Below are positions 4,541 through 35,174 of a DNA stretch of 64,000 nucleotides, in pieces. The first letter of the stretch is position 1. Every line of letters starts with the position of its first letter. Made by a program: the position numbers and the translations under genes. Below the pieces are notes generated by a model. That model ran no database searches. It saw only the letters and a program-made list of their open reading frames with translations, and was not told where the DNA came from. This DNA comes from Catajapyx aquilonaris (taxonomy: Eukaryota), in contig KZ538511.1 of NCBI GenBank assembly GCA_000934665.2, forward strand, positions 1-64,000, in the 5' to 3' direction.

Positions 4541-4693
4541 GATGGACCTATTCACCTGATCTTCACGGTTGTCTTAATATATAGTGTATCGTGAAGGTCA
4601 GTATGCACATTTCAGGTATGGTCTAGGTCTCTATGGGCCAACCCACGGTTCGCAACCAATGGGGGATACCACCACCCACCCACTCCGGGGGTG

Positions 4694-11900: not shown

Positions 11901-12677
11901 AACTTGCCTAGAAGGTCATGTTTTGAAATATACCCTTGCCGGTGATTAAAAGTGAAGAATGCTCGTGGTACGGAACACGACAAAGTCCTGGAGTGTGACG
12001 AAAGCTGTGGGCTTTGCTGATCTAGTTGCGAATGCATTCTTTTTTTTTCAACAGGCTTGTTTTTTCCTGAACGCTAGTAAATCTCTTTAGAGGATGCTTT
12101 CAGGACCAACATTGCTCACTGACATTTCTAAATCCATCACCCAGCTTTTCATGTCAAGTAGAAACAAGTCCTTCTGAAACTACCTGCCAGTCCGTTTTAA
12201 ACCAGTTGCAGTAGTTCCACTAATTATTCGTTGGCAATGAGTGTTTTTCAGTTGTAGTTTATGAAATTAATGTATGTCACCTTGTTTAGTTTTCAGAAAA
12301 GTGTTCCTTACCTGTGCAATGAGGGCAACAGGATAGACGATAGGTGCAGCATGTGGGAAGACTCGCCAGTAATAATAGACGAGACATCCTGTGTAGAGGT
12401 AGATGGAGGGCAGTCCAAAGATGAGGATGGAGGTGAGGAGAAGGACGGCGTCGAAGGTGGCCAGACCCAGCAGGAGGCAGTTGATGGATGACCTCATCTG
12501 CGGCCTGGACAGGATGATCATGGACAGGGCGTTGCCCACCAGTCCCAGCACCCCGATGCCTGTCACCAGGACTCCGTTGGTGATGAACTCGAACAGAAGA
12601 GGTGCTCCTGAACCACCTGCTGACGACTCCCCTTCCAACGTGTCGTTCCAAATGTCCAGATCCCAGCTGTCATTCAT
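8961..12677 (-). CDS. FMRFaR: FMRFamide receptor (class A neuropeptide GPCR), 3 coding exons, about 436 aa
   Basis: Exons 12677-12312, 11178-10837 and 9563-8961, all phase 0 with GT-AG. The 7TM sequence includes EFITNGVL..GLVGNALSMIILSRPQMRSSINCLLLGLA, TGSVYLTLTVTVERWVAVCHPLRARSLCTYGRAR, YNLPRFWE, QVRKANSERQRLS...EIGLAMMLLCVVVVFF and SNLLVTVNSSVNFVIYCIFGDKFKRLF, characteristic of insect FMRFamide receptors. Confidence 0.93.
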
Positions 12678-13324
12678 GGTCCGGGTCCTCCACCTCCTGG
12701 AAACCAACACTGGGATATAGGTCAGTCAGCCTCGGGTTCACATTAGGACCTGGCACCGTTAAAACTCGCTGCTGAAGATATACCTTTAGTGGTGCAACCT
12801 ATTGACCCAGTTTGTGGGTGTCAAATGTGTGAAAATACAGGTAGGTGCCCAATATATAGCCCTCAGCTGCTTAGCTGACATTGAGAGGTCGCATAAATCA
12901 TTTCGGTACTGGAGGTATACAGTACGTAAACGGAAATGCACTAGGGAAGTGTCCGGGCTAATTTTAAAATTAATGCTGCATGTGTCAGATTTTGGAATCT
13001 AGAGACTGTTGAAAAGCCCAGAGAGGAAGTGGTATTAGGCAAGTGGCACTAACTTCAGGCCATAATTGAGCTCGCTACCGGAGAAGGGTGTAATCTCATG
13101 TAATTGTCAAAATTGGGTTACGAACGCTGTTAGTCGCAAGTGGTAGTGTTAAGAGAAGTCTCGCCCAATGTAGGATACAAATAAGCTCTCTCGTTGTTAG
13201 GTACAAAAGCAGGGGCTCAAAATGTCCAGAGTTGTTGACTGGCCATTGAAATTGCAGGCCTTTGATTGGTATCAGTAATGAACCAATTTATGCCATATAG
13301 TCCTGTTGTCCAAAAATGTGCTAG

Positions 13325-13600
13325 TCCACCCCACCCCACTGGTCACTGGACATCAGGAAGTTCAACAACACTTTCAATGACAATGTGTGTGACAATGCAA
13401 ACTGTGTGTGGTTTGTGAAGACTTATCATTTACGGAAAATGACCCACAAACGACCTCAAAGCCTGAATGATCTGGATGTGAAAATTTCTGCAGCGTTCGC
13501 ACAAATTAATCACTCCGGAAATGTTACAAAACACGTGGCAGGAATTGAGCACCCGATATCAACTCTACCGAGTATGCAAAGTGGGTCATGTGGAGACCTA
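13325..13600 (+). mobile_element. Tc1/mariner-superfamily transposase remnant (C-terminal part)
   Basis: Frameshifted translation PPHWSLDIRKF...WFVK..RPQSLNDLDVKISAAFAQI.TPEMLQNTWQELSTRY...GHVE matches the C-terminal signature of insect Tc1/mariner transposases. Confidence 0.7.
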
Positions 13601-13954
13601 GACAAACTCCTATTCATAAAGATAATCACTGCTTAATTTGGATCAATTATGTATGTTATACGCATACTACAGAATTTTAAAATTATCCATACCCAAACGG
13701 ATCACCACTTTATATAGATGCAAATATACAAAATTAATATTGCAAAATTCGAAGAAAAAAAATCCTAAACACTTCCATCCCGAAGCTTTTCGGATTAAAG
13801 GATTTTCATCCTGTAATTTCATCATGTAATCCCGGTAATTCCTTTTAGGTATTGTATACAGTTGTTTTTTTTTGTGATAGCGTCAAATTTCGTATAAAAA
13901 AAGCGTTGGAATCAAAATTTGGCGCTCTTAATAAAACAGCTAATTTCAACTATA

Positions 13955-14282
13955 CAAGTTGAGAACCATTTATCCGAAATACCAATATCCCAAGAGTTTT
14001 TTTTAGTGCATTACGCGCCACAAATGAAAATTTTTATGAAAGTAAAACATGAATATCATTACCTCTATCTGTACCTATTTATCATGAAAACTACCTCCAG
14101 GGCTTAGGTAGGATTTTAAAAATTATGGATATGGATAGAACCATGTTCAGGCATTTATCCCATTCCAAAGCTGTCCGACTTTACATAAGCAAATATGGTA
14201 TACAAATAGTCCAAAATCCGAAAAACCCGGAATCCGAAACACTTCCGGTTCCAAGCATTTTGGATAATGGATAATCAACCTG
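13955..14282. mobile_element. Pogo/Tigger-like MITE
   Basis: TA|CAAGTTGAGAACCATTTATCCGAAAT at the left and ATTTTGGATAATGGATAATCAACCTG|TA at the right: imperfect terminal inverted repeats with a TA target-site duplication. A related terminus lies at about 13768-13815. Confidence 0.6.
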
Positions 14283-17200
14283 TATAAGTAATTCAATTTG
14301 GTACAGTTGCTTTTTTCTAGCTGATTTTTTTTGGGGGGGGAAAATGTCATTCCGGGACAATGCACATATTTTGTATACCTCGACACTACTTGCTTTTGAG
14401 GTAATAATCTTTTTGATGGATGTCCTCTCGCACCTGTTCTATGTGTTTTTCACCAGTGTGTTTAAATGAATATGTTTCACTGAGCAATTTATTGCATTCA
14501 GGTCCTTTTTATACTGCAATTTAAGAGCTAGACTCCTATTAGCAATAGCAAAAATTCTAGATTCAGTATCTGGCTTAAGCGAAATCATTCAGTCGCTAAT
14601 TTAAATGAACAGTAGCGACCATTTAAATCATATTTTAATCCCGCAATATTATGATCCCAATTTTGTGATAGTATTCGCATAAACAGTTAACTGAAATGGG
14701 CACGTCATTTGGAAGACACTTAATGGAGTCTAAAAGCACATTTCATGTCCATGTGTTTAGCCAAAAGCCTACCTTTCTTGCAGCGTTCCATTGATGAACA
14801 ACTCTCATTAAAGGTACTTCACTTAAAGTGTACATTCACTCTAAATATTTGGCAAATTCCAACAGGTGCAGAGCCAACTTGTATAAAACATGCTCATCGT
14901 TAATTAAGCGTCTCCTTTCAAATTAACCGCAGTGTAGCCGAATTAGCAGCTCGAATTCCGGAGGTAATCGCTTAGAAGTCAACTGTTGAAGAGCACTGTA
15001 GGCATCTTCTCAGTGCACTAGATTCGAAAGAACCAGTTTTGACATCACTTCACATTGCCGTACTACCACAGCCGTTTTCAACTCCTCTGCCTCGCTCCTC
15101 GCTGCAGTGAAAACAAATAAAACAGACTTCAAAGAGCTCTTCAAATGCCTTGAAAGTTTGGTCGTGGAACAGTTCCAAGTTTTCTCAAGTACATCACGTC
15201 ATCCTTCCATCCTGATATTATCATTTGTACCTAAACTGTAACGTTGACACTGCAGGCCATCCTTGCCTCAGTGGAGCAAGCAGAATATTATTAGGCTATA
15301 AACCACGATTTTTTTACATATTAAAATTGATGTCGTTATGTACTTGCTATGATTGAGCATTTTATTCTCTTTTTAGATGCTTTAACTCCTTTTTGAGTGG
15401 ATTTCTGGCAGCACATTTTGGAGCTATTGTAGATGCAATATTGCAGCAATATTGTCACACTAAAGATGTTATCAGTATACTTTTAAAAAGGTCGTGGCAG
15501 ATCTTGAGTGCAGCCGAACTGTGTAAATGACTTATCTCATTTTAAGTCGTAGGCCTAATACTAGAGAACTAAGTAGACTAACATGTCATTTGATTAGGAC
15601 AAAATATACTAGAACAGAACAGCAGAAATAGCTACTATCATATTGCTATGACGCAAATCAAGGTTAGGTTTGCACTACATCATGCGTCATTACCTCATAT
15701 TCTGTTTACAACATGCTATCAACAAACAGTGCAAAGTCAAATATGACAGCCTGCTGTACTGTACAGTAGTTTGCGTTTACACATATCAATAATTTCAATG
15801 AGCCTCATTTCGCCTGATTTTTATCGTTCTCTGGTGCTTGAGTACGCCTTAATTATGAATCGGCATGAATTGTTCCACAACTGGCCACTTGTTAGTAACG
15901 GTATCAGGGATGTGATGACATGCACCCGCCAAAATCCCAAATGTTCGGCTCTGATTTCTCTCCCAACCCTCATAGCATTAAAAACCCACTCGTATGGAAG
16001 GTATCACCACCTCATGCCGCATCACCCAGTTTGATAAATCAGGAAGTAATATATTTGGCGCCAGGAACAAGTATCCGCAAAGTTCTGGTCATGCACTGCC
16101 ATACAAATGCGCAAAAGTTTTTATGCAGCCAACCCTGGAAACATTCCACCCTAAACAAAAACCATGGTCCATGATAATAACGAGTGATAAAAAGCAAGTC
16201 CCACTGAAAAATTTGTCAAACTTTTGGCTATGTGGTCATTGTCTTTACCATGTTGGAAAGTGTGAGATAGATTGGATGAAGGTGTCAGAGGTCGGAAATT
16301 TTCTTTAGACCTAAATATGTGGGAATTAACATTGCTTGCTGCTGTACTCTAATCCAATTACACGCCAGTTCCCGCTCAGTCCGGATAAACGGAAAACAGC
16401 CGGTCGATATAGGACCACGCCAAACATTCCTGACGCTCTCATGCCAACTAAGATTCGCGGTTTTGGACCGTTGTCAATTGGCAACTAGTATGATGGGCAT
16501 ACCAGACCATTCCCGGAGCCCTTGGCTTTTGTGTCTGTCCCAGCCGGGCCGTGATTATAATGTTTTGCACATGGAGCAATCAGGAGGTAGCCTTTTGTGT
16601 AAGGTAACAGTGAGGGAATACTGTCAAAAGAGACGCAGGTACCATGGTCTGTAAAGGTTGTTTGTGAGTTACTCAGGGTCTAGCGGATGTGAAGCCAGCA
16701 CAACAATAGGGTCGTAGAACCAGGGAGTTGGTTCTCTGCCTGTGGAACGAAGAACGGTAACAAGCCTTTAACTGGACTGAGAGTATGAGGTACAGGTATA
16801 ATTATCATGCCTAAAGTGGAAGGTTCCGGTTCCTCAGGTAGTTGCTCTCATAGGACGTACAGTATGTTCCTCACCGACTTCCCAGATGTCGTTATTACTC
16901 AAGTGATATCTGAACTAAGGTAGCATGCATTTATTAAATTGTGGCTACCTACTGCAAAGCTTTTGATTAAGTTTCATTACCCGAACAGGAAAAATAAATT
17001 GGCAGAAGTCGTTGAACTCACGTCTCAAAAATATTTCGCTTCAGTGAGTTTGGAAGGCTTGCTTACTCAAAGTCGATCCAATTGAGAGACAGATGCGACC
17101 TACAGTTTCTCAATAAGGAAAATGTTCCAAATAACGTCCAGGCTCAATAATAATACTGCAATAGTGTATATTGTTCAGTCGTACATAGTATTTTATAATG

Positions 17201-17518
17201 ATGATTGAAAACTACAATTACTAGTTATCAGCAAGCAACACTATACAATTTGTGTCAATAAAACAAATGAATTCTTATTACCCAATGGAAATGTAATAAG
17301 TGCACTGTACTGAATATTTCATGGCTTTTACTCTCAGAACCGTATCAAAAATGGGTCGCTTCGTTTCTATCTCACGAGAATAGCAGTTTAATTTCTTCCC
17401 TTCGCTTGTCATTAGGTCTGAGCATGGAAGTAAGAGAACATAGCCCAAGGCAGGCTTCCTTGTCATACCAACAGTCCTGACCTAGACAAGGTCGGCTTTC
17501 TTCATACCCTTCCAAGAC

Positions 17519-17573
17519 CCCCCCCCCTCCCCCCCCCCNNNNNNNNNNNNNNNNNNNNNNNNNCCCCCCCCCC
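17519..17573. other. Assembly gap (25 N) flanked by poly-C
   Basis: N run at 17539-17563 inside C homopolymers. Confidence 0.95.
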
Positions 17574-20500
17574 TATTTATTCTCAAGAGGTCTAATCTCA
17601 AATCACAATCGCAGTGAAATGAAAAAGTTTTGCGCAGAAGCTGACAACATGCAAATTTCCAGTATTGTCCACACTAATATGTTCGTGTCCCCGCATGCGA
17701 ATTGAAACGGATCAAGTTGTATTTACAATGATCAGGTTGTCACCGTGTCCTGACGGCTATGGGATAAATGGCTAATAGGAATGCCCTCTAACGAAATGTG
17801 CTACTCTTTTTTTTTACCATCCCATGGGCAATCCAGAAGGGATTAGGTTTTCCCATAGACGAGGGATTTGTTATTGGTGGCCAATCCTGCCAAAGGGGGT
17901 TAAAATAGAGTGGGCAAGGTCGCAAGAAGGAAAATGGGCAACGGTGGAGATGTTCTCCCACCCACACAATTAGTTATCCGGGGGTCTGTTGGGAATGGGC
18001 TTCATCAAGATGGTGGCGTCGCTCAGGGTCCTAAATGGCGTCCACACCGTCCGTCAACTGGGCCACAGCCCTACTTTTTGCCTCTTCTAGCCGTCTGAAT
18101 CCATTCTAGGCACTCGTTTTTCACCCTGCCCCACTTACACAGAGAGCGTTTCATTCTACAAGTATTATGAGAAATAAGGCTTTTTAGAAAATAATCTAAA
18201 GGGGACATCACTAGGAATTATTTATTGAAACATACATTTGCCATCCATTCCTTCCAATGCACGTCTATGTTTCTCTCTGTATAAAATGGCAGAAATGTTC
18301 GACCCCTATCAATATTCAACTCTGCTCTCTAAATGACTGTCATATTCCTATACGGAAAGTGCGTGGAAGTGAGGCCATCCTCAAAGGTTCACAAACGTGA
18401 CATGCGAATATTGGACGATAGACCATTGGAGTTTCTCCTCCGAAGACAAACCATTTGAGCTGGGCACTTGGGGGTTTTGGAGACATCCTCTCCCCCCTTC
18501 TCCATAACGGAATTCCAGGCATGATCTCAAGTGCGAGGAAGCGCTACATGGCGAAGATGGGAGAGGCAAGCACCAAAGTGGGTTTCCCTGCCAAGAATGT
18601 TAGTGTACCCTTGCTGTATTTTTCCTTCCCCTTTTGCCACTACGGATGGAGAGCAGGCAAATGGGGCGCAAGCAGATAGGGAAGTTAGAGGAGGTTCCAG
18701 GCAAATAGGGTTTAGGTCTGAATATAACGCAATCAGAGAGAGAGGAGAGCACGTAAATCCCCATTTGACCTCCTCCTTCCCTAATGGGACTCGTCCATTC
18801 ATTCCTTATTCCCGAGACTCCGAGTTCCCTCATTTCCTTCCCATCGGGAAGCTTTTCCTGTACTGTACCAGAGAAGGCTTTCCATATATGAAATTCGATC
18901 CTACACTTCAGACCCGTTTTGAAAACCACATCTTGAAAGCCATTGTTGTCGGTCAAAATGGACGTGGGCGGAAAGTGCTGAGCGTGGACCATTAAAAGGT
19001 ACTGGGAGTTTATTATGTTGATAATGAAAGACGCCAATAACAGCAATGTATATTTTTGGCGATCAAATAGACCTCTGAAGAAATCAAAATCCCACCAAAA
19101 ACCTTTCTGTAAAAAAAAGGCCAAGTTCTCCTGACTGCTTGGCCGTAAAAAGTGGTGAGATCTGAAATATTTCCTTTTTTTATTTATGAAAGTTAGACTT
19201 GAATAACAACTGCCCCCCTTGTGGCGTGAAATTAAGTGCGAGATCGCAGTCTATGGGGCTTGGAGGTCTCACAACGGCTTTAATTAAGCTTCAGACTTCC
19301 CCCACAAGGCTTTCTTATCTCTAACCCCCCCCCCTCCCCCTTTACACCCACCCACGCACTGGCTCCCTTAATCCGCTCGTCGTCAACTAAAGAGCAATAC
19401 AAGTCCGCACGTTTCCATTGGTCACAGCTGCAGGATACAAGTTTGTCGCCCACCAACAGTCAGAGGCTATTGAATCGTGCTGCTTTCATCCGGATAAAAG
19501 CAGTTGCGAGAGCTAGCAATTAGTCTTAAATCTTCAAAGCCCTTTTTTCACAAATAAGAGAGGTGCTATTATGTGCAATAGAAGTAAACACGGAAAGTTT
19601 TTTTTGGAGACCGACGTTCTTTCCACTAATGATGCGACGAGTGAATTCATTTGAAATGTTTGACGCAAATAAGGTTGTTATTTTTTTTAAATCTGTCAGA
19701 TCAAAATGCAAAATTATAGTGAACGGACCTGTGATGACTATTCAAAGTGATTTGTTATGATGGAGCTTATTAAATTTCCCTAGCATGAATTTCCTAATAT
19801 TTTTTTTAAACATGTTACCAGCAGAGCTGATAATATCAGTAGTGCCGAACATGATAACCGATGTTCGCCCTGGTTGACATATCCAATCACACGATTACTC
19901 GCCTTTCCGCGCCTAAGCCCTTCTGCCCGATAAGCAATTTTATTAGCAAATTGAGGAGTTATTCAATTACAGTGACCTTTAATTATCATTGACATGAATC
20001 AATGTTTAATTATTTAGAACCAGCCTGTTCGGTATCGCCCACAAATTACGTCGTGTCAAGAACTTCCAAATATTTCCCCGCATGTCGAATTATTAGTTTT
20101 CTTGGCAGGAAGGCAGCAAAGTAACGTCTGCCTCTTGACGTCATTATCTGAAGAGGACAGATACGCTGCACATATGCGACGAACAATGCACCCTATTCAC
20201 CGCCAACCCTTATCAGCCATATCTCCCACATATCTTGTTGAGAAATCCCACCTGAAAATTATCACTACTCGCAACTATCCAGTTAACAACTCCACAGGAC
20301 CCACTTAATTTTGGTCCCTCCTTTAAAAAATCAAGTTATCAACTTTTCCAAACTCCAGTGAACCCTAATTAAACCCAACTTCATCGCAGTTTCCTGAACT
20401 TCTTCAAGGCAAATCGAAGAAAGAGTTTCAGCAAGTGGCTGTCAAGCACATGCAGAAAACACGAATTTGCCAACTGAAGAAAGACTAAGTTGATTGAGGT

Positions 20501-22006
20501 TTCCTTGATTATCCCAGAGAGCGTTAAAAGCGCGCCCGAGTGAGGATTAAGGGAAGCAAATTGGCTCCGAATCCGCCTGCTTTTGAGGGTGCCGCTCGGA
20601 GGTCATTCACAGGGCAGGGTCACCAACCATCAAAACCTGGTCTTATCCAGCGCGTCTTTTTCTCATTACGTTGTTGGCGTATGCTGACGATGACGACGAC
20701 GCAGTTTGAAAATACCTCTCAAGGGGGAAACAAGAGCCAATTGCAAAACCCTGCCCCCCTTTTTCCCTCCCACACCATCTTGCCGAAAAAAAGAAGAAAA
20801 AGGCGGAAGGTGTTGCTATGGTAACCTCATAAGCGGGCCAGACTTTGTCGGCACTTTCTTTAGCAGAAGGAACGAAAAACGAGCCTGAAAGTGTTTTTAC
20901 AAAATTCGAGGTTGCCAGATACGTATCCGACCTCAGGTCACAAGTTATGTAAAATGCAAATTAACTAGCAAAAAATTTATATATTTTGGTGAAAATTACA
21001 CAATTTTCGCCAAGATCGGACAACTTTGAAATTCTGACTTTCGGTGCCTCTAGCGTCGAAACGGCAAGGTAGATTTTCTTCGGCCTTCAGAACAATTGAC
21101 CCTGAGGACAAGGTCTATTAACTGACCAAGTTTCACCCAAATCCAACTGGGGGCACTTTTCCATAAGGGTTTAACCCATGTCCTTTCCTTCCAAATTTAA
21201 TTTTTTTGTGGCGCTATATACTTTTAGTAGTGTGAAGTAGTGTGATATTATGAGAAGCATTTATCGGCGCAATAAAAAAGGTCGATGGTCACCGGAAGGT
21301 CAAGTAAGCAAACAGCTGGTCTGAAATGAACGTGATTGAGCCGTTTGGCGCTTCGGGGGTGTTTGTAGCGTTAACCTCGCAACCGTAAATCAATCACAGG
21401 GCAGATAATTACTCGATCATTGATTAGATGCTTCCTGTCGGTATCACGCCACAATGAGCTTTACATACATTAATTACGAATACCACAGGGATGTTTTTTT
21501 TTTTTTCAGTACCAATTTTCAACATGTCGCCGACTGACCAGATCTGGAATTATTTCTGGTTGAAAGGAAGTAGTTATATAAGAGAGGGTACGAAGGTCTT
21601 TGCTCCCTTTAAAGAATCTCATTATGGTAGTAGGAGTCTGCGGGATATAATGAGGGCCCAATTAGGGGGTCGCCAGACTCATTACTGCCTTAAACATTTA
21701 GGAAACCTGGACTTGACACTTTGCCTCCCAGAATGACACTAGGTTTGTATGGAAAGTTCTCTGGTGAATGCTGTCAAAAAGTTACGCCTTGACGGGTGCG
21801 TCACAAAGAATGTTAGGGTATAACACCAATAGAGTTCGTTGGCTTATGATGGGCTTTTGCAATCATATTTGGTTAAGGTGATGTAATCCAATAGGATAAA
21901 TCAAAAGTAAAGAAAGTTAATGAGATATTACCACCTCAGAAGTGATCAGCTGCAATCGATTCGTTTGAGGAAAGGAGATCTATAGGGGAAAAACTCACTT
22001 GCGGAC

Positions 22007-22084
22007 GGAATTCCCATATCTTCGTTTCTCCAACGATTTTTGCTCCTAAATCTCTCTGAAGAAATCCTTAGATTGGAATTCCCC
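22007..22084. promoter_or_regulatory. Pair of kappaB-like (NF-kB/Relish-type) sites upstream of the PGRP-like gene
   Basis: GGAATTCCC at 22007-22015 and GGAATTCCCC at 22075-22084 (reverse complement GGGGAATTCC fits GGGRNNYYCC). A further GGGAAATTTTCC lies at 22691-22702. Motif match only. Confidence 0.3.
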
Positions 22085-23009
22085 TATATCTTTTCTTTCT
22101 CACCCTCCCACCATCTTCGCATCTGGCCAGGAATGAAGAAATTGGAGAAAATTACGTGTCGAGTCCAGCATTGCCAGGTTTGTATGAAACTGGCAGTAAA
22201 TCACGATTTGCTCAGATTTTCTGCGACTTGTGTCCAACCACCTCAGTTTTGTGAGAATCGTTTGTCACTACACCTGTTGCACTCATTCCACAGGATGCTG
22301 GCAGGAATCTTAAACAGGGGATTTTGTGGCCTGAGGGGAATGGTTGAACGCCCCCAAGGAGCTGGCTTTCATCCAGACATATAAACGTAGGCGTTTTAAC
22401 ATTCACTTTTGCATAGTGTGTGTAATAATGCCATATTTATGTTGCAATATGAGTGACAAAATTGTACTGAACTTTATACAGTTGCTCCGATTTTCATATC
22501 CTTACTTTGTGCATTCAGTACCTTTGTACGCAGAGACTAATTAAAAAAATTGCGCATTGAACAACTCTTTGATATATTCAGACATCAAAGAGTTTCATTA
22601 TGAATTGTGAACTTGAAAGCGTTTTAGGAACCCAAATCCTATAAAATGTTGGTATGTTTTAAAGTCAGGTGTAGTTTTGCACCAAACTGTGGGAAATTTT
22701 CCAGACTTACAACTTGTTATGCCGAAAATTCTCCCAAATGCGAACACCCCTTGAGAGGTGTTAAAACCGAGTTAAAACTTAGCAAAAGAGCAATGGCTCG
22801 TATAATTAACTTTACACCACGGGATCGGATGAATAGTAGCAATATATAAGGCTTCTTAAATCTCAGATCTGCAGATACTGTTAGCACCGACATCATTAAC
22901 GCCTACAAGTTCTTATCCCGTGTAATAGGATAATGAAAGTTGCGTACTGCAATTTATTTTGTGTACCTTGATAAGGTCTCAGACTCCATTAAACCCACCC
23001 TTGCATCAG

Positions 23010-23853
23010 GGACTATGTAGATATGACATAATAAATAAGTTGGTCGAGATGTACTTTCTGGCTGACGGTGATTCGCAGTGGACTGGATACAACGCCTTTG
23101 TATACACAGGGTTGAAATTCAGACGAAGCTTGCACAAGGTAAAGAGGAGAAGCGTTTTCTCTAAGGTGTGGGTTGGTGTGGATTGGAAGCTTGGTATCGA
23201 TTCAGGAAACACGGTTAGAGAGGCAAAGCAATCATTCGTACCTCTATCCCAGGCACTGAAAATTGCGTTAGAGTAACTCCATTTTAAAGTCCGCCTAGCG
23301 GAAGACTTTTCACAGCTTGCAGGGATCGGTTCATGATCACCGCACTCGGTGAAAAATATCACTGGATCTTGAGCATACAAAAAGCTTATTGAACATCTCT
23401 GCCAAATTCGTCTTCTACCCGCACTTTTTTTTTAAACAGCATCTTCCCAAAAGCAGTAAAAGACGGCAAGATGCCAAATGGCGACCATATCGCGAAACTT
23501 TTGTCACATCATACTGTTTTTAGTGGTAATGCAAACAAGATGGGTGAATCTATAACAGAGCAAATATTGTACTGGGACAATGCAGCTTCCAAGGCTTCTA
23601 GGGAAGATGGTCTATTCATATCCGAACAAACACGGGAGATGCTATCGGATAGTGATTATCGATCAATCATTACCAACAATGCAGGCCTATTTTTGAATAA
23701 TGGACTAGGGTAAGTGCTTCTTAGTCTCGTAAATGCACTGTGCGCTGACGTTGTAAAAGACGCAGTTTGTGTAAATAGACGGTTTTTCCTTGTTCTTCAC
23801 CTCGTTCAAACCTTGCCAGTATAAATACACCTCTTAGATCCGGAAATATTTAA
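23010..23853 (+). CDS. Divergent, probably non-catalytic peptidoglycan-recognition protein (PGRP/amidase_2-like) domain; 5' exons unresolved
   Basis: Phase-consistent exons about 23010-23272, 23440-23709 and 23820-23853 (stop) give ...MYFLADGD..AFVYTGLKF...VWVGV...VPLSQALKIALDIFPKAVKDGKMPNGDHIAKLLSHHTVFSGNANKMGESITEQILYWDN... By eye this aligns to the PGRP C-terminal half (YNFLIGGDG.VYEG...P...AL.....L...GV.DG.....Y.L..H......SPG..LYE.I..W). The Zn-binding Cys of the T.CPG motif is absent. Confidence 0.55.
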
Positions 23854-24389
23854 GTATACAAGGGTGTCATATTCTCGGAAGTTCGACTACAAAAATACCG
23901 GTGCATGTGTATCACCGCCGGATTTTGTGCCGCCTTCTGTACATACAGTGCAGGTCGTTGGTGTGTTGATGTAATACAGTGCACTCGGGCGTGATTTATT
24001 GTAGCAATAATTGTGAGTGTCTCAAAACCTTTTAGAATAGCTAATGGGACCAAATAAAATGAAGTCAACAGTAATGACTTCCTAATTTAATTAGTACATG
24101 TCGATCGTGTGGCACCGAACCAACACTGCGGCGGATAATCCGCATTGGGAATAAGCGCAAAAAATTGTTTTGCACTTCAAAAATGTCCTTCAGTTCCCTT
24201 GAAACCAAAAGATCTTTTCCACCACACTGATTTAACGTCCTCCATTACTCGAAAACGTTGAACGTCCGAAGACAATAAAGCGTTTCTGGACACTGGACAC
24301 ATTCTGAGGCTGACAAAATGCAGTGGAGAAGTGGAGCAGGAACGGGTTTGAATAGTCTCTTTAATCAGACCAGATGGAGGAGTTTCTCC

Positions 24390-24400
24390 GGGATTTTCCC
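24390..24400. promoter_or_regulatory. kappaB consensus site about 1.3 kb upstream of the NLR start codon
   Basis: GGGATTTTCCC matches GGGRNNYYCC exactly. Motif match only. Confidence 0.3.
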
Positions 24401-25289
24401 CGGATTCTGTAGAGCTTTGTTGTTGTTGAACCCTATTCAAAGATAAAACCGACTTGGCTTCACTTTTTACGAAATGTGCTGGGTGAGGGATGAGGCAGAC
24501 TGAGAAGTACTCATGGATGATAGGTGCCATGAGGTTTTATCTGTTTTATCAGTGTGCAAAGGTTATTTGCAAGGGGGGGGGGGGGGGGGNGGGAAGGACG
24601 GGAAATGGCAAATGAAGGAAAAAATCAGTGAGTGACTAGTTTTTGGATAAGTGTGGTGTGTGAGTGCCGAACTGCGCAAAAACTTGTGAATGATATGGAA
24701 TTTGGCGATTTTGGGCTGTATACAAATTAAGGCAAGGTAGGCCTCCTGTACATAGTTAATATAATAAGAAATAAATGGTTTTCGTATGGTAGTAAATTCT
24801 CTACTAATATTAAACACTGCAATTTTTTTGTTTATTTGTAATAACTGCACTTATTTTGATATGTACACACCTCTCATCTTATGCATTTAAGTTTCATTTC
24901 AAGTGTCTATTGTCTACCTGAAGGCCAAGGACTGATAATATGTGTGGCAATATTTTGTACCAGTTGCTTATATTCTCAGCTTTGTTGCATCCTGTATGGA
25001 ACAATATGGACCATGCGGAGCTGAATATAAAATGAAACTGGATGGCTTTCCATCCTGGTTAGGATATGATTGTGAAGCGGCCGTCCCGAAAATTACGTAA
25101 AATGTGGCCTCCAATCAACGGTACTAACTGCAAAAATCTTTCACCGCTGATATTTCCAAGCGAGTTGTTTGATCCGCGGAGGTTCTGGTATATTTCTTGA
25201 GTCGACAAAAAATGGCTTGGAACTGCATTATATTGTAATAATTTTTCTGTAATGTAGGCTAGTGTTTCCAGTTCGTGTATATGCATACA

Positions 25290-25402
25290 CAGTGAAATCT
25301 GCGAGGAAATATGTATGTAACCGACCATGGATAAAGCGGAAACTTGCCTGTTACGGAATTTTTTGCGGAACAGAGAGTTTCCGCTGTGTGCAGGTTTCAC
25401 TG
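25290..25402. mobile_element. Short pogo/Tigger-like MITE fragment
   Basis: CAGTGAAATCTG at the left and CAGGTTTCACTG|TA at the right. Confidence 0.4.
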
Positions 25403-25670
25403 TACAAGAATATTGGTGTGAAAATAATCGCATCACACATTCCATATTCCTGTGGTTCAAATATTTTATCTGAATAATAGGATAATTATTGACACCAGTG
25501 TTATTTGCGTCCGATAGTTAGAATTGCGTGGGTGATATTGAGAGAGATAGCCCACATATTGTGTCTTATTACATAATTATTTTTCCCATCTTACTTCATG
25601 TGTAGATCAGATAGACACTCGTGACTAACACTCATAATTCAGCATTGTTTCTGCATTTCAGTATTCCATC

Positions 25671-28600
25671 ATGGGCGGCATATGTAGTACCTGCTCTGGC
25701 AAAAAATCTAAATTATCCAGCACCACTTCAATGCGCGAGGATAGTAGTCCCCCTGAACACCAGGTTGAATGGGATCCACATCATGAGCCTCAACCAGAAG
25801 AAGCTCATGAACCTCTACCAGTACAGTGTGACAGTGTCGATTATCGCAAAGAATCCGTCACTTCTTCACTAACTATCGAAGTCCCCAGTACAGATTATCG
25901 CAAAGAATCCGGCACTTCTTCAACTATTGACGTCCCCAGTACAGATGAAGCCTTCACTGACACAGTGAAAGTACCTCGTCCGAAACAGAAACGCACAACA
26001 GAACAGTACTGCCGTTCAACAGAAAATCATATTTGGAAGGATATGCCGTCCACGTCAGAGCACATCTATTACAGTGGAATGTCATGTCCTGACTTACATC
26101 ACCAACCGGACAGCGGTATTGATACCGAACACCGAGGAAGCACTGCGGGAAGCAGCACCCATCACTTTGGTTCGGTGTCGGCCACAAATGTCCAAATAGG
26201 CGACAAGACTAACATAATTGTGCAACAGCCACCAGAACCAATAAATTACGAAGGTAAATATAAATATTATATCCTCAATATTATATCGGTCTCCACTAAC
26301 AACGACCCTCCAACATCTTTTTCAACCTTTCTTGGTCTTCTCTATTCCTCCAGACCTCCGATATATGTCCCTGCGTACTCAAGCCATACATACCTGCAGA
26401 CCTTTAAAAGCAAAGAGGGGGGATCTAGTGGTCGTAAATCATCTTGGGCATAAGTAAAGCTATTTGGAGTTTTACGGCCAGCCTCCGATCCGCTGAGTTG
26501 CCTTTGTGTAATGAGTCTTTTAGTAGGACCCACATTCTCCCTGGGTTAATACTGGGTCTTTTTTAGCACTTTCCGGGAAATACCGAACGTTATTGCCACA
26601 AAGCGGAAGAGCTCTGTTACTCCAGTAATTAGAAGTGTTCGTGCTAGGAACAATACTTGCACTAAATGGGTCCAACTTACTTCAATTTGAATAATGCATA
26701 AATTGAATTTTTAATTTTGGTTTACTATTCAGCGATTGTGCAGCAAATGCAAGGAACTTTGCGTGGATATTACTGCAACAGAGGTGCTATTTTTGTACCG
26801 ATGCCATGGGTAAATGCTGACACAGAATTCAAGATGAAGATTCACTACCTGGAACCTGTAGTAACACACAAAAATCTGCATGAAGTTGAAGAGACTTGTG
26901 GTGCACAGCCAATTGTCAACCTTCTATGCAGAAACTCATCAGGTACAGTCCCGCTCAATCTCTCTTGGTATGCAAATTTCCCCGTCTTAAGCAGGTGTAG
27001 ATATATATAGCCCTGTCATAATCCAGTGGAGTAGCTAAGTTATGTGAATATCAATCACTCCACCTAGACAGGCCCAAGTTCCTGGTTTGCAAACACAGTC
27101 AGGTTTGTCATAACTGATGAATGCAGGAAATTAACCAGTTGGGGGAAGCTACTGCAATGTGACCATCGAATATTATTGATGAAATATGGTTATCAGGCGG
27201 ACGTTGATGGAGATGACTTCTGTGTATTTCCAGGAAGACGCATATTGGTGGAAGGCGATTTAGGGTACGGAAAGAGCACTTTGTTTAAGAAGTTGGCCTA
27301 TGATTGGGCTACTGGGGAGGCTCATCCAGAGCTCCAGAACACTTATGACCTCGTTTTCCTGGTTCCACTGGAAGAAGTTGGCACAAATCTATCAGAATAC
27401 CTTTGTCAGATGGTTGAAACGGTTACGGAGGTGCAGTCAGCCGAAGACATGGAAAAGGTAAATTGTGCTTATAGTGATAAAAGCGAGACAGCTTAAAGTG
27501 ACATTCACCCAATTTACTTGCGGGCAAGTTTTTAATTTCTTCGGACGAAATTATGACAGAAAGAGTTAATATCGATACTAAAGTTCAGTGCGTCATCAGT
27601 TTATCTTCAGGGAAGAGCTCATTAGGTACTGTTCTTACTGCTGAGGATTACAGAGAATTTATAATAATGATATCACATGCATCGCATGACTGTTGCTGAA
27701 AGTAAGCTTTGATGTAACAGTCGGTCGCTTTTTCGCCATACTTTTTACTAATAGGGTCTGTTAATCCCAACAGTGCAGTGCAGTGGTGAAAATTACAGTA
27801 TGACGAAGAACCGACCTTATATTTAACAATAATTTTTGGCATGTAACTCAGTACCTCTTCATTGATGTTTCAGGCACTTAAGTATGTTGGCTCTCGCTTG
27901 CTTCTATTACTGGACGGTTATGATGAATTGACGGAAGACGAAGCTCAACGCTCCGTAAGGAAAGTGGTCCAATGCAAAATGTTTCCAAACGCTGCCTTGG
28001 TCCTTAGTACACGCCCTGTTCCTGCTCAGACAATGCTTCACTGCGATTTCAATGACAACATTTTTGCTGTGCGAGGATTCAGCGAAGAAAGCATCCGGAT
28101 GTTCATAAGCTCTTACTTTAACGGGGAGAACTCGGAGCAAAGATCCAGAAGTGCTGAGCTTGTCATATGTGGAAATCTAAGCCCCGTGAAACATTTGGCC
28201 ACTTGTCCAATGCTTTTGTATCAATTGTGCCACTTGATTGATGATGAGCTGGGAGTGTTGCCGACTACACTGACAGAATGTTACAAGGTGAAATATTAGC
28301 TGTCTCTGATGTCATTATATTGCTATTATGATTAGGTACTGCATTTAGCATATCGTTTTTTTTTGTACGTAATAATATTTGTTACTTCATATGAGTGAAG
28401 CAGGCTACTAACTGTGCTCTAATGTAATATAGGCAAACTATTATTTGTATACGTTCTGCATAAATCAGCTTTACAATTCCCTGAAAGTCATATTGACGTC
28501 ATAATGATGGATTTAGAAGTGGGAATTGGTTTTTTCACTTCAAAATTTTTAAAAAGTCTCATAGGTACACGAAGCTCTAAGTAATCTTCCCATGCAGTAC

Positions 28601-31600
28601 ACTACATTATTTTTATCCTGTCAGGAATCGGTTTTTAACGTAAATTTTTAAAATTAATCCCGACCCCCGTGGGTCTGAAATCAACTGAATTATAAACCCT
28701 ACTAAAAGGGTGATTCGCAGCCTACATTAAGTCCATATCAATAGTTTTTTAATTGCGGTAACATAATGATGACCAAACATAATCTACCCTTCGATACAAA
28801 ACTGATATTCCAACTAGCTTCTTCCGGTTTAGATGGTTCTCTTCATTTAGCATCAGTTATGATGAGTGTTTGTTCCTCTACTGTCTACTCTACTGTAATG
28901 ATACTAATCTTCCTTCATTACAGGAACTTTTGAAAAACAACATAAGACAAGGACTAGGACCTTTAGACATAGAATCGAAGGAAAATGTCAAGAGAGTACT
29001 TGAGACTCTTGGAGGTGTGTGTATGGATGCCCTTCAGAATAACCGCCTTGCATTTAAGGAGTCCGAAATGCAGCCTATTCGCGTCATGCTATCAGACGCA
29101 ATAGGATGCCCGTCTGGAAAACTAGCCAGAAGCAACGAAGACATTTTGTTGAGACTGGGCATCCTTAGCCACCAAAGAACTGTGCGAAACCGGGTCACTA
29201 CTATAAAGTTCCAGGTCATTCACAAATCGTTCTCGGAGTTTTTGGTTGCTCAGCATTTGACAGCAAAAGCTGGATCTACCCAACAATTTTACAGAAAAGT
29301 CGGCCACATTGTCAACCGGTAAGAGCCATTTACTGCTTCTAATCCTGTATGTTGCGTTAACTACATTTGCACTGTTTTGGTTACAAACAACGGCTTGTTT
29401 GTTCGCATAGCCTACATAAACTATGGAACAAATAGTGTTTGTATACTGACTGCAAGGTTGTTTCACATTTTTCTTGCCACAGCTTTGTTCTCTTACTATA
29501 TACTGTAAAAGAAAGCTACTTATGGGAACCCATGAAAGAAAACCATCTCCGTTTGTGCCGCATTCAACTTTGACATTGAGCTGCACCTCCAAATGTGCAA
29601 CAAAAAAAACCAGACCGAACTCCCCCTTGACCCTAACATTGAAAAGCGCTGAATTGACAAAGAAACCAACCTTGGAGTTTGGTCCAGTGTAGCAGCCGCT
29701 TCAAGAAGCGATCCGGTTGCCAAGCAACAGCTAATGGACACTCCAAAGCTTTGCACAAAAGGGAAACAAGCCCTCTCTGATCGGGGGGGAAAAAAAGCCC
29801 CATCGTCCTCCGCAAAGAAAATGGTGCGAAAGAACCTCTAAGGAGAAGGAATGGGATAAGGCAGCGAAGTAACACCAACAAGGCTTGCGGTGAAATACTA
29901 ACTATACTCTAGTTGCCACCATCCAACTACAAGTTTGGGCCCACCTAATGCCGCTGGGAAATCGCCAGATAAGTTCGTCAGCCTCATGATGCAGAGACTC
30001 TCGTTACAGTGACTGTTCAAAATCAGGAGGCACACTTGGAGGTGGCAGATTGTTTTTGCAGTGAAAGAAGTTACCAACTTAGTAAACTGCACCATCTGCC
30101 AGGAGAAATTGTGACGAGTTTTAGACAGATATTTATAGTCTCAAAAATAATTAAGCCGCAGGTGGCTATTTTATAGAGCATTAAGGAATTTCCCCCTGGA
30201 GATAATCCTTTCTCAAAGTTCTATGCGAGATATTCAAATTAATGGCTTAGTTTTCAGGCCAGCGACCCCGTGCCTTAAACCTTATTCAACACCTAGGGAA
30301 AGTCTATTTTACTAATCTAAAATAGGACTTAACTTTTCCTAAGCCAGAAAGAAAATGAGAGCCAGATTAATTAACAAAAGTCACCGTAGAGACACCGCAA
30401 CCGTCGTATTTTTAGACCACGTTCTTATGAAAAGGAGAGGAAGTTTTATTATTCCGGCTGAAAAGTTTATCGCTCTGAGAGAAAGTTTCGTACCACTGAA
30501 AAAACCCACCATCAGTGGTGGTGAACTTATTTTCATCTAAACTTGACTCATACTGTACTGTACAGTGTTGGACATCGCGTCATACTGCTAGTGACATTTT
30601 CTGATGCGGCAGACGTGCAAATTGAAATGAGCCGTACGAGTAAGAAATGGTAGACATTAGGTGACGTCACTGGCTGGGAACAAGCCATTTCCTCATTGCC
30701 TCCCCAGCCGGTGACGTCACTCGAGGCCTACCTCTTCTAACTCGCACGGCTCCCTCATCAGAAAATGTCGCTTAAACCTTCCCCTGGGTTCTAATACCCC
30801 ACTGGGCCACTGCACTGGTTTCAGGCTTGTCCTAAGCCATGATTGATGCTTCATATTAGTGGCCTGTTGTGCGGCACAGCTGTGCTACCAAAGGTCAACA
30901 TCCAGGCAGGGAAAGAGCCAAAAATTTGGGAGTAATGAACCCTAACGAAAACATGGCCCTAACAGCAGCCTGGGGCCATTTTGATTATAAGCACCCAAGT
31001 TAGTAGGACCCATGGCACGAGATGGATAGCTGTGGTGGCCAACTCGAGAGGGAGCCATAAGGCCAGAGATTAGCCCAGCACTATTTCACCTCCAGCTGCC
31101 ACTCTTTGTTTCCTGGTGGCGGAGGCTTATTGCCCCTTCGATCTGTCCTCCAGATCGATCCAACCTCTCACCACCGGTGGTTCCAAAAAAAAAAACTTAA
31201 GCTTATTTTTTTGGTATTTTTTTTTTGCAGGCTCTCAGAAGGTGTGTACTCCCCTGTGATGACTTTTCTGGCAGGGCTTTTGAGGGACAGACTTGGTCTG
31301 CTCCTTGAAGCCCTAGCCTACTCCCATTGCGTGGTGGAAGGCGATCGACTGTGGGATTTGCTTCAAGAAGCGGAGACTACTACTAACTCCAAGGAAACTC
31401 TAGAGGCGGCAAACCGTCACATTTTGCCAAGGTTAGACAGTGCGACACACAAAAAAAAATATTGCAATTTTGCGATGTAAGATGAAAAAAATAATTTCGG
31501 AACAGTCTGGATGTTAATCATAAATCACACCTGGTTGACAGTAATTGCGGCAAGACGCGCAATATTATGCAGGGTCCTATCCTAGCCGTCACCCAGACCA

Positions 31601-34600
31601 GGCTAGGTTTTGTTTAACTTCCGATATTCTGAACAAACGGTGACATCACATGATGAATTTTGAATAGGTCAGGGGCTGAAACCCGTGAAATTACTGAGTG
31701 TGGGCGTGGACTGGCTGGAAATATCTTGAATGGCACCTAGTTCGGTCGGAATTGCTCTGATAATTCTGAGCAGATTTTACGAAATCAGCAACTAATCAAT
31801 TAGGAAAATACGTACCTACTATAATTGATTAAAGCGGACATTATTAACAATTAGAACATTTCAATATGTACAGTAATATTTGGCAATAATGGTGATATAA
31901 TATTTCTGTTCAACAGCTACTTTCATATGAATTCTTGGGAGCATGACCAAGGGCAATACATTGCAACCGTTTTAAGTGCACCATCTTGCCAAGTTGGTCA
32001 TGTACATGCTGATCTTCAAACTTGGAAGGCTGTTCAATCCATTGAAGAATTTCCATTTCCCAAGAACCAATCGATCCACACAGTCACGATCGATGCCCGG
32101 TTTTCTCGCAGGGCTTTGCACGTATGTATATTCTCCCTCTAGTTTTACACCCAATTTGTTACCATGGACCATAAATTAACCTGGCGTGTGGCGAGTAAAT
32201 GAGTGACACATGTTGGCTATCTGAGGCTGACCACCGGAAGTTTCACAGAAACGGTTTATTGGCCACTGGGGTTAGTGTGTGTGTGTAGAGAGAGATAACT
32301 GAAGGTTCATCACTATCACATAAGATGGATTGTAAACGTGGGAAAAGCGAGACGATCCGTTTCTTTGCGACCACCCTTGGGACTATTCGTCATATGCCGG
32401 AAGAGCTATTTTTTGCTTTTCTACCCTACTATTCAGGTGAACAGGAAAAAGAGGGGCAATAAATTCAACTAACCGGAAATGTGCAACGTTCAATCCTGAC
32501 TCAGATTTTTTTTTTGGAACAGTCTCGTATATCCGGGTCATTGATTTCGTATCAACTCGCTTATCTCCACGTCCATATGACTTTATTCCAAATAGCTAGA
32601 GGCAAGATTTTGAGTGTTTCTGATTACATTTTAGGCGCGTTTGTGTAAAGTACAGATTGTGATGGAAACGCCATAGGCTACATCTTGTTCGAGAGTGAAG
32701 ATGCATATAACAAAAATGGATCATTCCAACATCTACAGGAGAGAGTTATACAGAGGATACTGGATAAACCCAGATTGGAGGAACTTGCCATCATTTGCCA
32801 GTACGATGAAGAAGCCTTGAGCATTTGTCGGGACATCTCCAGATCCGATTCTCTTCGTCGATTGGCACTCTTGTTTCAAACTCCTCGTTGGAAAACCGAG
32901 CTGAAAGCACTCAGGTTAGCAGATACCCAGATTACGTTGGTTACTCTACATTTCTCTGCTCGGTACACGGAAAGTCTGTTTAGATTTCTGGCAAATGACA
33001 CTTTCTCCTGATCGGGTTTCTCCAGTGCCCTGCAGATTAAAAACGAGAGTGGTTACGTACTACTCAGGGAAATGATGTAACGTGATGTTTAGTCTGAATC
33101 GCTGATTGGAACAACATACGCAGGGTTCTGTTTTCCGGAGGGTGCTGGAGAAACCGGGTCTGGAAGAATTCACCGCCATATGTCAGCACGATGGAGAAGC
33201 ATTGACCATATTAAATGACGTAGCTAGAGCCCGTTCACTACGCCGATTGGCCTTCTTATTTCACAGTGCTCGCTGGGGACCAATACTAGGAGAAGACAAA
33301 CTGGCGGCCCTAGAGGTTTCTATGGCTAACTCAAAGGTTAGCAGAAATTTAGGTCATGTAATTACGTGAATGACATATTGGGCACTATTTGTTAGGTGAC
33401 CTCGCTCTATCTTTATCCGCTTGAGTGCTGTACTGAGAACATGGCTTCCTTGGCGATAATAATCACCCTGGGAGTTTTGGAAGAGCTGCATCTCCCGGCA
33501 GTCAAGACGTTCCGGAGTGGTGGAGGAAGCAGAGGAAGAGATCCTCCAGGTCCCATTGCGGTCATGTTCCAAGCGTTATCATCTCCATCATGTCATCTTC
33601 GTCTATTAGATCTCAAACAAGCTGGAATATCCCCAGCTGCATGTTCTGTACTGGCTGATTTGCTGCCCAGAACACGTACACTGCAGGTACAGTTTTTCAA
33701 AATGTTTTACTTACAATCTGCTCAAACACTATTTTTTGTGATTGTAGGAGTTGATCCTTGGGGATATCAACTCGACAGGGTGTCGCTCCCTGTTTAATGT
33801 TGTTCAAGGAGCGACATACAACGGCTCGATACGCAATCTAGATGTGTCAACCTTGAATCCTGGTCCTTCTGTGTGGTTGAGCGATGTCCTGACGACTCTA
33901 GCGAAGGGAAGCATCCAGAAGCTGAACATGTCCGGATGGAGCTTCCACCTGGCACAGCGCGAACTGACCACTCCTCAATCTGCATTGGTCCGATGTCTTC
34001 GTCGTGGTATCCTCCCAGTGCGTCACTTGTTGGTCAGGGGTGCTCAGGTGACGCACACTCCAACACAAGAAGACGAAGTAACAGCGGACAACCTGGACAG
34101 CAAACCAGTCTCTGACGACGATGAAGAAGAGGAGTTGAAGAAGTTGGACGACGACTTAGTAGGGTTTGCCTTGCTAGAGAGGCAAGTGTTTCCAGGAACT
34201 ACGTCTATTCGAAAACGGGTTTCAGTGCAAGAAGTGGCTACCAGCTTGTCAAAATCAGCAGGGGCTATATCAAAGAAGTACAGCAATGAGAACTTCTCAG
34301 GCATGGTCAGGTACGTGGCAACGTAATTATGAGCACCACATCATATTATACGTCTTCACTTTACAATGTTTGCTAATCTGATCGTGTTAGATCGACGGTG
34401 GAATCGTTGGAACGCAGACACCGATTTGGGTCCGACAACAGTCAAGATGAAGACGATGTAGACTCCTACAGTCCGGCACAAATTGTGAAGGAAATAGTGA
34501 ACGTTTTTCGAAACTTGGAGCACCTGGTACTGAATTATTCAGATCTGATGAAGCTGGAAGACGCCGCACCCGGAGTGGTGACTTCCCTTCCCGAATTGAA

Positions 34601-35174
34601 AGGTCTAGGAGTGCATCGTCTGGAGGGTAACGACCAACTGAACTCAGTTGCCCGTCTTCTAACACCAATCGCAGCACGTTTGGAGGTTCTAGAACTCGAG
34701 TTTGAACGTCGAGACGAGCGAATTCCTCAGGAGCCAGACGGTTCATGGGCCATCCTACTGAGGTCTTGCGTCCACCTGAACGAGATCAAACTTGCCCTGC
34801 TTAGAGCTGGTCCTGGAGGGTCAGGAGGCGCGGCAGGTGCTGGGCTATGGCTCTCTGACCATGTGGACCTGCTGTGCACCACGGTCCAGAACCCTGGTCT
34901 TAAACTACAGTTGCGTCTTGGTGAAGTGTTGGCCTCGGAGATTCCGTCAGACTCGCTTGAAAATTGGGCCAATACGCTTGTCAAGTACTTCCGAGGCGCT
35001 GTGTTCCAACTGGTGATGGATCTGCAGTGGTGGCTGCTACCTAAGTGCTTTCCGGCTGTCTTCAGGCACACGCTTTACAAATCTGGTCGTTTCAGGATTC
35101 ACTCGGACGTGCGCTTAAGGAAGGAAATGTGCCAACTTGTTACCGCTACCACCATCTCCGACACTGTTCCGTAA
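25671..35174 (+). CDS. NACHT-LRR (NLR-type STAND NTPase) protein with an N-terminal RHIM-like motif, about 1360 aa, 11 coding exons
   Basis: Phase-consistent GT-AG exons: 25671-26253, 26733-26942, 27234-27457, 27874-28287, 28924-29318, 31231-31431, 31917-32121, 33124-33336, 33396-33686, 33748-34310, 34391-35174 (total 4083 nt). NACHT features: Walker A ILVEGDLGYGKST followed by KKLAYDW, YDLVFLVPL, Walker B LLLLLDGYDE, sensor-1 LSTRP, VRGFS, CPMLL, winged-helix IHKSFSEFLVAQHL and FLAGLL. The C-terminus has LxxLxL repeats (HLRLLDLKQAGISPAACSVLADLL..TRTLQELIL, IRNLDVS, IQKLNMS, LEHLVLN, LEVLEL). Confidence 0.9.
25839..25943 (+). repeat. In-frame tandem duplication (54 + 51 bp) in NLR exon 1
   Basis: DYRKESVTSSLTIEVPST followed by DYRKESGTSSTIDVPST. 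Confidence 0.9.
30591..30771. mobile_element. Palindromic MITE in NLR intron 5
   Basis: Terminal inverted repeat gacattttctgatg/catcagaaaatgtc, with internal mirrored blocks (gagccgtacgagt, gtgacgtcactggctggg). Confidence 0.7.
32739..33011 (+). CDS. Duplicated LRR-type coding segment of the NLR gene (candidate alternative or terminal exon, or decayed copy)
   Basis: ERVIQRILDKPRLEELAIICQYDEEALSICRDISRSDSLRRLALLFQTPRW is homologous to exon 33124-33336 (GSVFRRVLEKPGLEEFTAICQHDGEALTILNDVARARSLRRLAFLFHSARW). It has a phase-0 acceptor (caacatctacag) and a stop at 33009-33011. Confidence 0.5.
   Translation, partial: ERVIQRILDKPRLEELAIICQYDEEALSICRDISRSDSLRRLALLFQTPRWKTELKALRLADTQITLVTLHFSARYTESLFRFLANDTFS

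Follow-up and report, generated by a model that had tools for sequence, protein, structure and literature searches.

A NACHT-LRR gene of Catajapyx aquilonaris with a RHIM-type tetrad in an N-terminal exon lacking a recognizable effector domain

We analyzed the first 64,000 nucleotides of contig KZ538511.1 of Catajapyx aquilonaris (GenBank assembly GCA_000934665.2); this whole stretch is referred to below as the window. Positions 25671-35174 of its plus strand hold a multi-exon eukaryotic gene, whose 11 exons, once joined, give 4125 nt or 1374 codons, the only stop being at the end. The locus appears to be an intact NACHT-LRR (NLR) gene with LRRs of the ribonuclease inhibitor type. Its first coding exon has no known effector domain and encodes a short island around VQIG, a tetrad of the kind that forms the core of RHIM motifs. 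Exon ends were placed by means of GT-AG sites and reading phase, both from the DNA read directly and from a scripted list of sites. Because the ends were picked so as to preserve the frame, finding it open tests the consistency of the model but does not prove it independently. The gene model consists of the following features.

25661..25670, plus strand: untranslated bases at the 5' end of the first coding exon, directly after the strong acceptor tttctgcatttcag (AG at 25659-25660)
25671-26253, plus strand: exon 1, coding residues 1-194 plus one base; rich in Ser, Thr, Glu, Pro and Asp, domain-free, predicted to be unstructured
26733-26942, plus strand: exon 2, region ahead of NACHT, in phase 1 at both ends (splice sites, joined frame)
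27099-27457, plus strand: exon 3, which encodes the first half of NACHT including Walker A GDLGYGKST (Pfam NACHT, 6.1e-08)
27874-28287, plus strand: exon 4, which encodes the second half of NACHT including Walker B LLLLLDGYDE (Pfam NACHT, 1.2e-10; NLRP3, 7.4e-05)
28924-29318, plus strand: exon 5, presumed helical/winged-helix region with IHKSFSEFL (splice sites; weak NLRC4 match, E 0.46)
31231-31431, plus strand: exon 6, linker to the repeats (splice sites, phase), without a family match
32756-32914, plus strand: exon 7, repeat exon with a weak acceptor, paralogous to exon 8 (tblastn)
33141-33336, plus strand: exon 8, repeat exon, sharing the donor context gttagcaga with exon 7
33426-33686, plus strand: exon 9, ribonuclease inhibitor-type LRR (ribonuclease inhibitor, 1.2e-15; NLRP14, 3.7e-08)
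33748-34310, plus strand: exon 10, LRR-like, then an acidic linker (splice sites; LRR-like pattern by eye), without a family match
34391-35174, plus strand: exon 11, the last one, with LRR-like LxxLxL stretches and the stop TAA at 35172-35174

The junction of exon 1 with exon 2 has a consensus donor (GAAG/gtaaat) and acceptor (ttactattcag/C) with matching phase (phase 1). Based on this splice-site consensus and phase, exon 1 would be spliced to the NACHT exons. The least certain boundary of the model is the acceptor at 32756, which is weak and purine-rich; here the model may have the wrong junction or lack an exon. When the exons were compared with the window using tblastn, no paralogous NLR was detected, and the only match was internal: exons 7 and 8 are paralogous, with 46.6% identity over 73 residues (to 33112-33330). 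These two exons also have the same donor context (AG/gttagcaga), yet an indel leaves their ends in different phases. Long open reading frames (ORFs) on the minus strand, e.g. 29125-29700 (192 codons), accompany the intron after exon 5 (29319-31230, 1.9 kb) and may represent a repeat element.

The identity of the gene is set by its NACHT and LRR exons. Two of the 11 ORF translations scanned against Pfam, those of two consecutive exons, matched the NACHT family (PF05729) above the gathering score, with E values of 6.1e-08 and 1.2e-10. Both nucleotide-binding signatures, Walker A (27254-27280) and Walker B (27898-27927), are intact. In a comparison of exon 4 with PDB, all 16 chains matched at E<=0.1 belong to the NLRP family, NLRP3 being the best of them (7.4e-05). 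For exon 9, the PDB matches (43 chains at E<=10) include ribonuclease inhibitor (1.2e-15) and NLRP14, 7, 9 and 3, with E values from 3.7e-08 to 1e-4. Pfam LRR models had no match at E<=1 in the scanned ORF translations. The winged helix is the least supported part of the architecture: the winged-helix/helical region of exon 5 matched no Pfam family, and exon 5 aligned with NLRC4 weakly (E 0.46), across the FHKSFQEY/IHKSFSEF stretch. An AlphaFold2 model of the last exon, obtained from a single sequence, was all-helical and poor (mean predicted local distance difference test (pLDDT) score of 47.6); it was discarded, and the fold of that exon is unconfirmed. An earlier interpretation of the locus made from the DNA alone (the sequence-only reading) had proposed a complete spliced gene of NACHT, winged-helix and LRR parts. 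The gene does look complete, given the Pfam NACHT matches, the match to NLRP3, the ribonuclease inhibitor-type exon 9 and the single 1374-codon frame. Of the three parts, NACHT and LRR stand, whereas the winged helix has the weak NLRC4 match in its favor.

Exon 1 is of a different nature. Its product is composed of 14% Ser, 10% Thr, 9% Glu and 9% Pro, just as the sequence-only reading had described it (S/T/P/E-rich), and Asp, at 7%, is also high. None of the Pfam families was matched by exon 1 at E<=10. AlphaFold2 modeled it without secondary structure and with a mean pLDDT of 47.6; this result is weak evidence because the run used a single sequence, and it is consistent with a tail that may be disordered. 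Neither exon 1 nor any of 222 other ORFs yielded a death-fold (CARD, PYD, DD or DED), TIR or similar domain. The 222 ORFs were covered by two scans. One included 136 of the 165 ORFs in the window that are at least 75 aa long, the omitted 29, at 24566-35074, being the gene itself and the opposite strand. The other included all 86 plus-strand ORFs of 35-74 aa at 13000-25700, that is, about 12 kb upstream. The claim of an N-terminus without a recognizable death-fold or TIR domain is thus upheld, and no ORF scanned over these approximately 12 kb would provide a conventional death-fold domain from an upstream exon.

The very start of exon 1 carries a feature that the sequence-only reading had missed. 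The consensus for N-myristoylation is MGxxxS/T, i.e. Met-Gly and Ser or Thr at position 6, while nearby Cys residues and a basic patch make dual acylation possible. The predicted protein begins with MGGICSTCSGKK (25671..25706, plus strand), which has Gly2, Ser6, Cys5 and Cys8 as well as a basic patch. Judged by eye, and assuming that the predicted ATG is the true start, this sequence has the Met-Gly, the Ser/Thr at position 6 and the nearby Cys of the consensus. The exon 1 tail therefore probably begins with a putative myristoyl/palmitoyl membrane anchor. Acylated NLRs are known in plants and palmitoylated NOD1/2 in mammals; we know of no N-myristoylated NLR in animals.

The second feature of the tail is located close to its end. 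Exactly where the sequence-only reading had placed its motif, at 26154-26225 (plus strand), STHHFGSVSATNVQIGDKTNIIVQ is encoded as residues 162-185. It includes HHFG (26160-26171) and VQIG (26190-26201; residues 174-177), followed by TNIIVQ and then by QPPEP. VQIG does fit the RHIM core tetrad and is identical to that of mouse RIPK3 (448-VQIG-451). Nowhere else in the 1374 residues does [IV]Q[IV]G occur, and when exon 1 was shuffled 20000 times, such a tetrad arose in only 98 cases (0.49%). The surroundings of the tetrad also differ from the rest of the tail. All the top beta-propensity windows of exon 1 are found at residues 164-186, inside the longest proline-free stretch (147-186), which is closed by QQPPEP. 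Hydrophobic residues are present on either side of the tetrad (F166 and V169 before it, I182-I183-V184 after it), although the criteria used here are qualitative and post hoc. A pattern defined post hoc from these properties (the tetrad, at least two hydrophobic residues per side and no proline) was found in 15 of 200000 shuffles. From its sequence, the island appears to be the tail's only ordered-looking element: 24 residues, proline-free and beta-prone, that surround the canonical RHIM tetrad VQIG and include, shortly upstream of it, the IMD-like HHFG. The assignment of the island to a folded pre-NACHT region was considered and rejected by inference; the island is situated about 140 residues before Walker A, and QQPPEP separates it from exon 2.

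Searches for homologs covered protein, atlas and metagenome collections. In the word-indexed search against longer proteins, exon 1 produced 1044 candidates, none of them at E<=0.01. The corresponding protein searches with the NACHT exons produced 47 candidates for the first one (none at E<=10) and 692 for the second one (none at E<=0.001). The protein atlas returned no usable match for exon 1 and bacterial NACHT clusters alone for the NACHT exon. Metagenome scans gave 194 pattern matches for the NACHT exon and 72 for exon 1, of which none was confirmed. A phmmer search with exon 1 against 1.84 billion representatives did return five matches at E<=0.001, but inspection of the sequences led us to reject them as repeat artefacts. 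The five proteins are internally repetitive and were matched in 4-17 stretches; their best stretches correspond to residues 2-143, and none extends over the island (162-186).

We tentatively favor, while putting it at somewhat less than an even chance, RHIM-type signaling by induced proximity, with an IMD-like adaptor as the candidate partner of this NLR. In such a mechanism, the LRRs would sense a ligand and release NACHT. Oligomerization of NACHT would then gather the N-terminal tails at the membrane, where they are probably held by acylation. The clustered islands would nucleate a cross-beta assembly of the RHIM type, and this assembly would recruit an adaptor with a RHIM or a cryptic RHIM (cRHIM), IMD being the obvious candidate. 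Parallels to this scheme would be the action of PGRP-LC or shrimp SRB2 on IMD and that of fungal NWD2 on HET-S. No partner gene with a matching motif was found in the window. A more specific version, which we consider rather unlikely, is a lipid-anchored arthropod NLR in which a bona fide RHIM replaces the death-fold domain and seeds IMD, or another RHIM or cRHIM protein, into a signaling amyloid.

Almost as likely, in our view, is the main rival reading, in which VQIG is a coincidence. Exon 1 would then be a fast-evolving disordered linker with a lipid anchor, serving for membrane placement or providing phosphorylation or docking sites, and the receptor would signal through NACHT/LRR contacts. 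Several observations weigh against RHIM-type signaling or in favor of coincidence. Pfam models of RHIM and related amyloid motifs had no match at E<=10 to any of the three island or exon 1 peptides (41, 53 and 194 aa), although owing to the HMMER filters such a non-match means only an E value above roughly 0.1-0.3. Likewise, the 53-residue island piece matched no PDB chain at E<=10 in phmmer. The fuller RHIM core is worded as G-phi-Q-phi-G with flanking N/G in PMC7885112; the extended core is absent here, since N stands in place of the first G (N-V-Q-I-G), and the Asn that follows the tetrad is separated from Gly by one position more than in mouse RIPK3. Beyond exon 1, the tetrad arose in 4.6% of 5000 whole-protein shuffles and occurs four times in the 127996 residues of the six-frame translation of the window, or about 3 per 100000. 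The other three occurrences are all outside recognizable genes, and one of them passes the flank pattern too, which makes this pattern nonspecific in ordinary sequence. As to the proposed likeness of HFGSV to the cRHIM of IMD, HHFG does share HFG with the LHFG of Drosophila IMD, but the definition of cRHIM is too loose for this to count. HHFG and VQIG both have Gly at the fourth position, a criterion of almost no specificity; that Gly alone is conserved, and the functional motif of SRB2 reads ARNG (PMC10268257), so the likeness lends no support. Exon 1 is, moreover, an orphan without a detectable relative in the searches described above. It contains a tandem duplication (25839..25946, plus strand; 54 nt, 2.1 copies, 89% matches) that encodes DYRKES..TSS..I(E/D)VPST twice. 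A recent duplication of this kind suggests that the tail evolves quickly and is typical of fast-evolving filler sequence. An MGxxxS-type start suits the role of an anchor, and signaling via NACHT/LRR contacts has precedents in shrimp LvNLRC and in mammalian NLRC3 and NLRX1 with STING. LvNLRC, the one shrimp NLR studied so far, is reported to bind STING through NACHT and to act via NACHT-STING and cyclophilin A contacts, not via its 349-residue N-terminus, which has no assigned function (PMC12370184). What speaks against coincidence is where the tetrad is found: the tail otherwise abounds in Pro, Ser, Thr and acidic residues, and the tetrad falls within the only island in it that is both beta-prone and free of proline, with a low chance of occurrence (the 0.49% for exon 1). 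In addition, its flanks follow the arrangement of three strands known from a solved RHIM, that of mouse RIPK3.

A further alternative is that the 5' part of the gene model is wrong, with exon 1 either outside the NLR message or not the true N-terminus. The actual start could be provided by another first exon, by an internal ATG in exon 2 or by an upstream coding exon with an effector domain. We regard this as improbable. All junctions are predicted from sequence alone, there is an assembly gap upstream (17539-17563), and a strong acceptor is present 10 nt before the ATG, with the frame staying open across it. This acceptor implies an upstream exon, which was not located. It is probably a 5' untranslated one, because the ATG is in a good context (ATCATGG) and is followed by an acylation-type motif that works only at a true N-terminus; were this exon coding, its frame would match that of exon 1. 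The in-frame stop at 25635-25637 falls in the presumed intron upstream of 25661. The present 5' model is further favored by donor and acceptor sites that follow the consensus and agree in phase (phase 1), by the 271 codons over which the frame around exon 1 is open and by the lack of a death-fold, TIR or other domain in the 222 ORFs outside the gene. Finally, the gene might be a decaying or non-functional copy, its features being without function. Both the lack of relatives of any exon in the protein collections searched and the one weak acceptor (32756) would agree with decay; all 11 exons are nevertheless in frame, Walker A and B are intact and the only stop is the terminal one, which makes this explanation very improbable.

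Other features of the window were recorded as well. Upstream of the NLR, on the minus strand at 8964-12725, there is a gene for a G protein-coupled receptor; three of its ORFs matched rhodopsin-family seven-transmembrane models (7tm_1, 2.6e-09 and 3.6e-05; Srw, 5.7e-06). A metalloprotease exon is located at 1050-1586 on the minus strand (Peptidase_M16, insulinase; E 9.9e-15). The same strand has, at 3434-4573, an open frame of 380 codons that matched no Pfam family at E<=0.01 and is the longest ORF of the window outside the NLR. The assembly gaps upstream of the gene are 25 N at 17539-17563 and a single N at 24590; the first of them could conceal sequence relevant to the 5' exon.

According to a published survey, arthropod NLRs have no N-terminal effector domain (PMC11508797), which leaves their route of signaling to be explained. 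A RHIM-type island at the effector position offers a concrete and cheaply testable answer. If true, it would link NLR sensing with the relay by cRHIM amyloids in IMD signaling, so far separate fields, and would provide a cytosolic NLR input into the arthropod IMD/Relish or a necroptosis-like pathway. The NLR-to-amyloid relay of amphioxus, fungi and bacteria would then reach protostomes as well. If VQIG is coincidental, the gene would simply add to the divergent NLRs of arthropods, with its probable lipid anchor as the main point of note.

Among solved structures, the nearest ones are vertebrate NLRP3 for NACHT (7.4e-05) and ribonuclease inhibitor for the LRRs (1.2e-15). Unlike vertebrate NLRP3, the Catajapyx gene has no pyrin domain, and its exon structure and N-terminus are unrelated. 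Compared by description, shrimp LvNLRC (Litopenaeus vannamei), a crustacean NLR, is similar in that its N-terminus, 349 residues long, lacks an assigned function; the word RHIM does not occur in the paper (PMC12370184).

A close counterpart of the island is the RHIM of mouse RIPK3, with the core 441-VFNN, 448-VQIG-451 and 455-SLV (PMC7955032). The tetrad is identical, the motif is in an unstructured region in both proteins, and both have the same layout: a hydrophobic strand, a short loop, VQIG, a polar turn, a hydrophobic strand and proline. The differences are that the RIPK3 motif is C-terminal to a kinase, that the flanking Asn is shifted by one residue and that no similarity at the profile level was seen.

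Crustacean IMD signals via cRHIM amyloids, and the tetrads of IMD are LHFG in Drosophila and VHIG in shrimp (PMC10268257). They resemble HHFG and VQIG, a likeness of little weight given how loosely cRHIM is defined. With PGRP-LC/LE and SRB2, as in the proposed scheme, the receptor is associated with a membrane, and IMD amyloid is seeded by its RHIM-like motif in the cytosol (PMC10268257, PMC9387487). These are transmembrane PGRP or scavenger receptors, however, and not NLRs.

Short amyloid motifs at the N-terminus of an NLR, which template an effector, are known from the fungal NWD2/HET-S pair, fungal NLRs with the PP motif and bacterial BASS3 (PMC7885112, PMC7889193, PMC12261475). The PP and BASS3 motifs have the phi-Q-phi-G core in common with RHIM. 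In the fungal and bacterial systems, however, the motif is within the first approximately 30 residues and the NLR has the effector gene next to it, whereas the Catajapyx motif is at residues 162-185.

The architecture as such has a precedent. The sequence-only reading had made the novelty depend on the architecture being undescribed, but a RHIM-NACHT-repeat protein, BF82280 of Branchiostoma floridae, was already published by Kajava et al. in 2014, who liken such amphioxus proteins to fungal NWD2 (PMC4262963). In open-access literature and bioRxiv we found no arthropod NLR described as carrying a RHIM; this scope does not extend to the figures and supplementary material of Kajava et al., which list several other invertebrates. 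BF82280, compared here by its description, has the RHIM in the usual place of the death-fold domain, N-terminal to NACHT and C-terminal repeats. The amphioxus motifs were found with a RHIM profile at p<0.01, whereas the Catajapyx motif fails the Pfam RHIM model. The Catajapyx gene differs further in being of arthropod type, in its acylation-like N-terminus and in having one tetrad only. The amphioxus precedent thus reduces the claim of novelty, while a RHIM on a lipid-anchored NLR of a protostome would be new if the motif is real.

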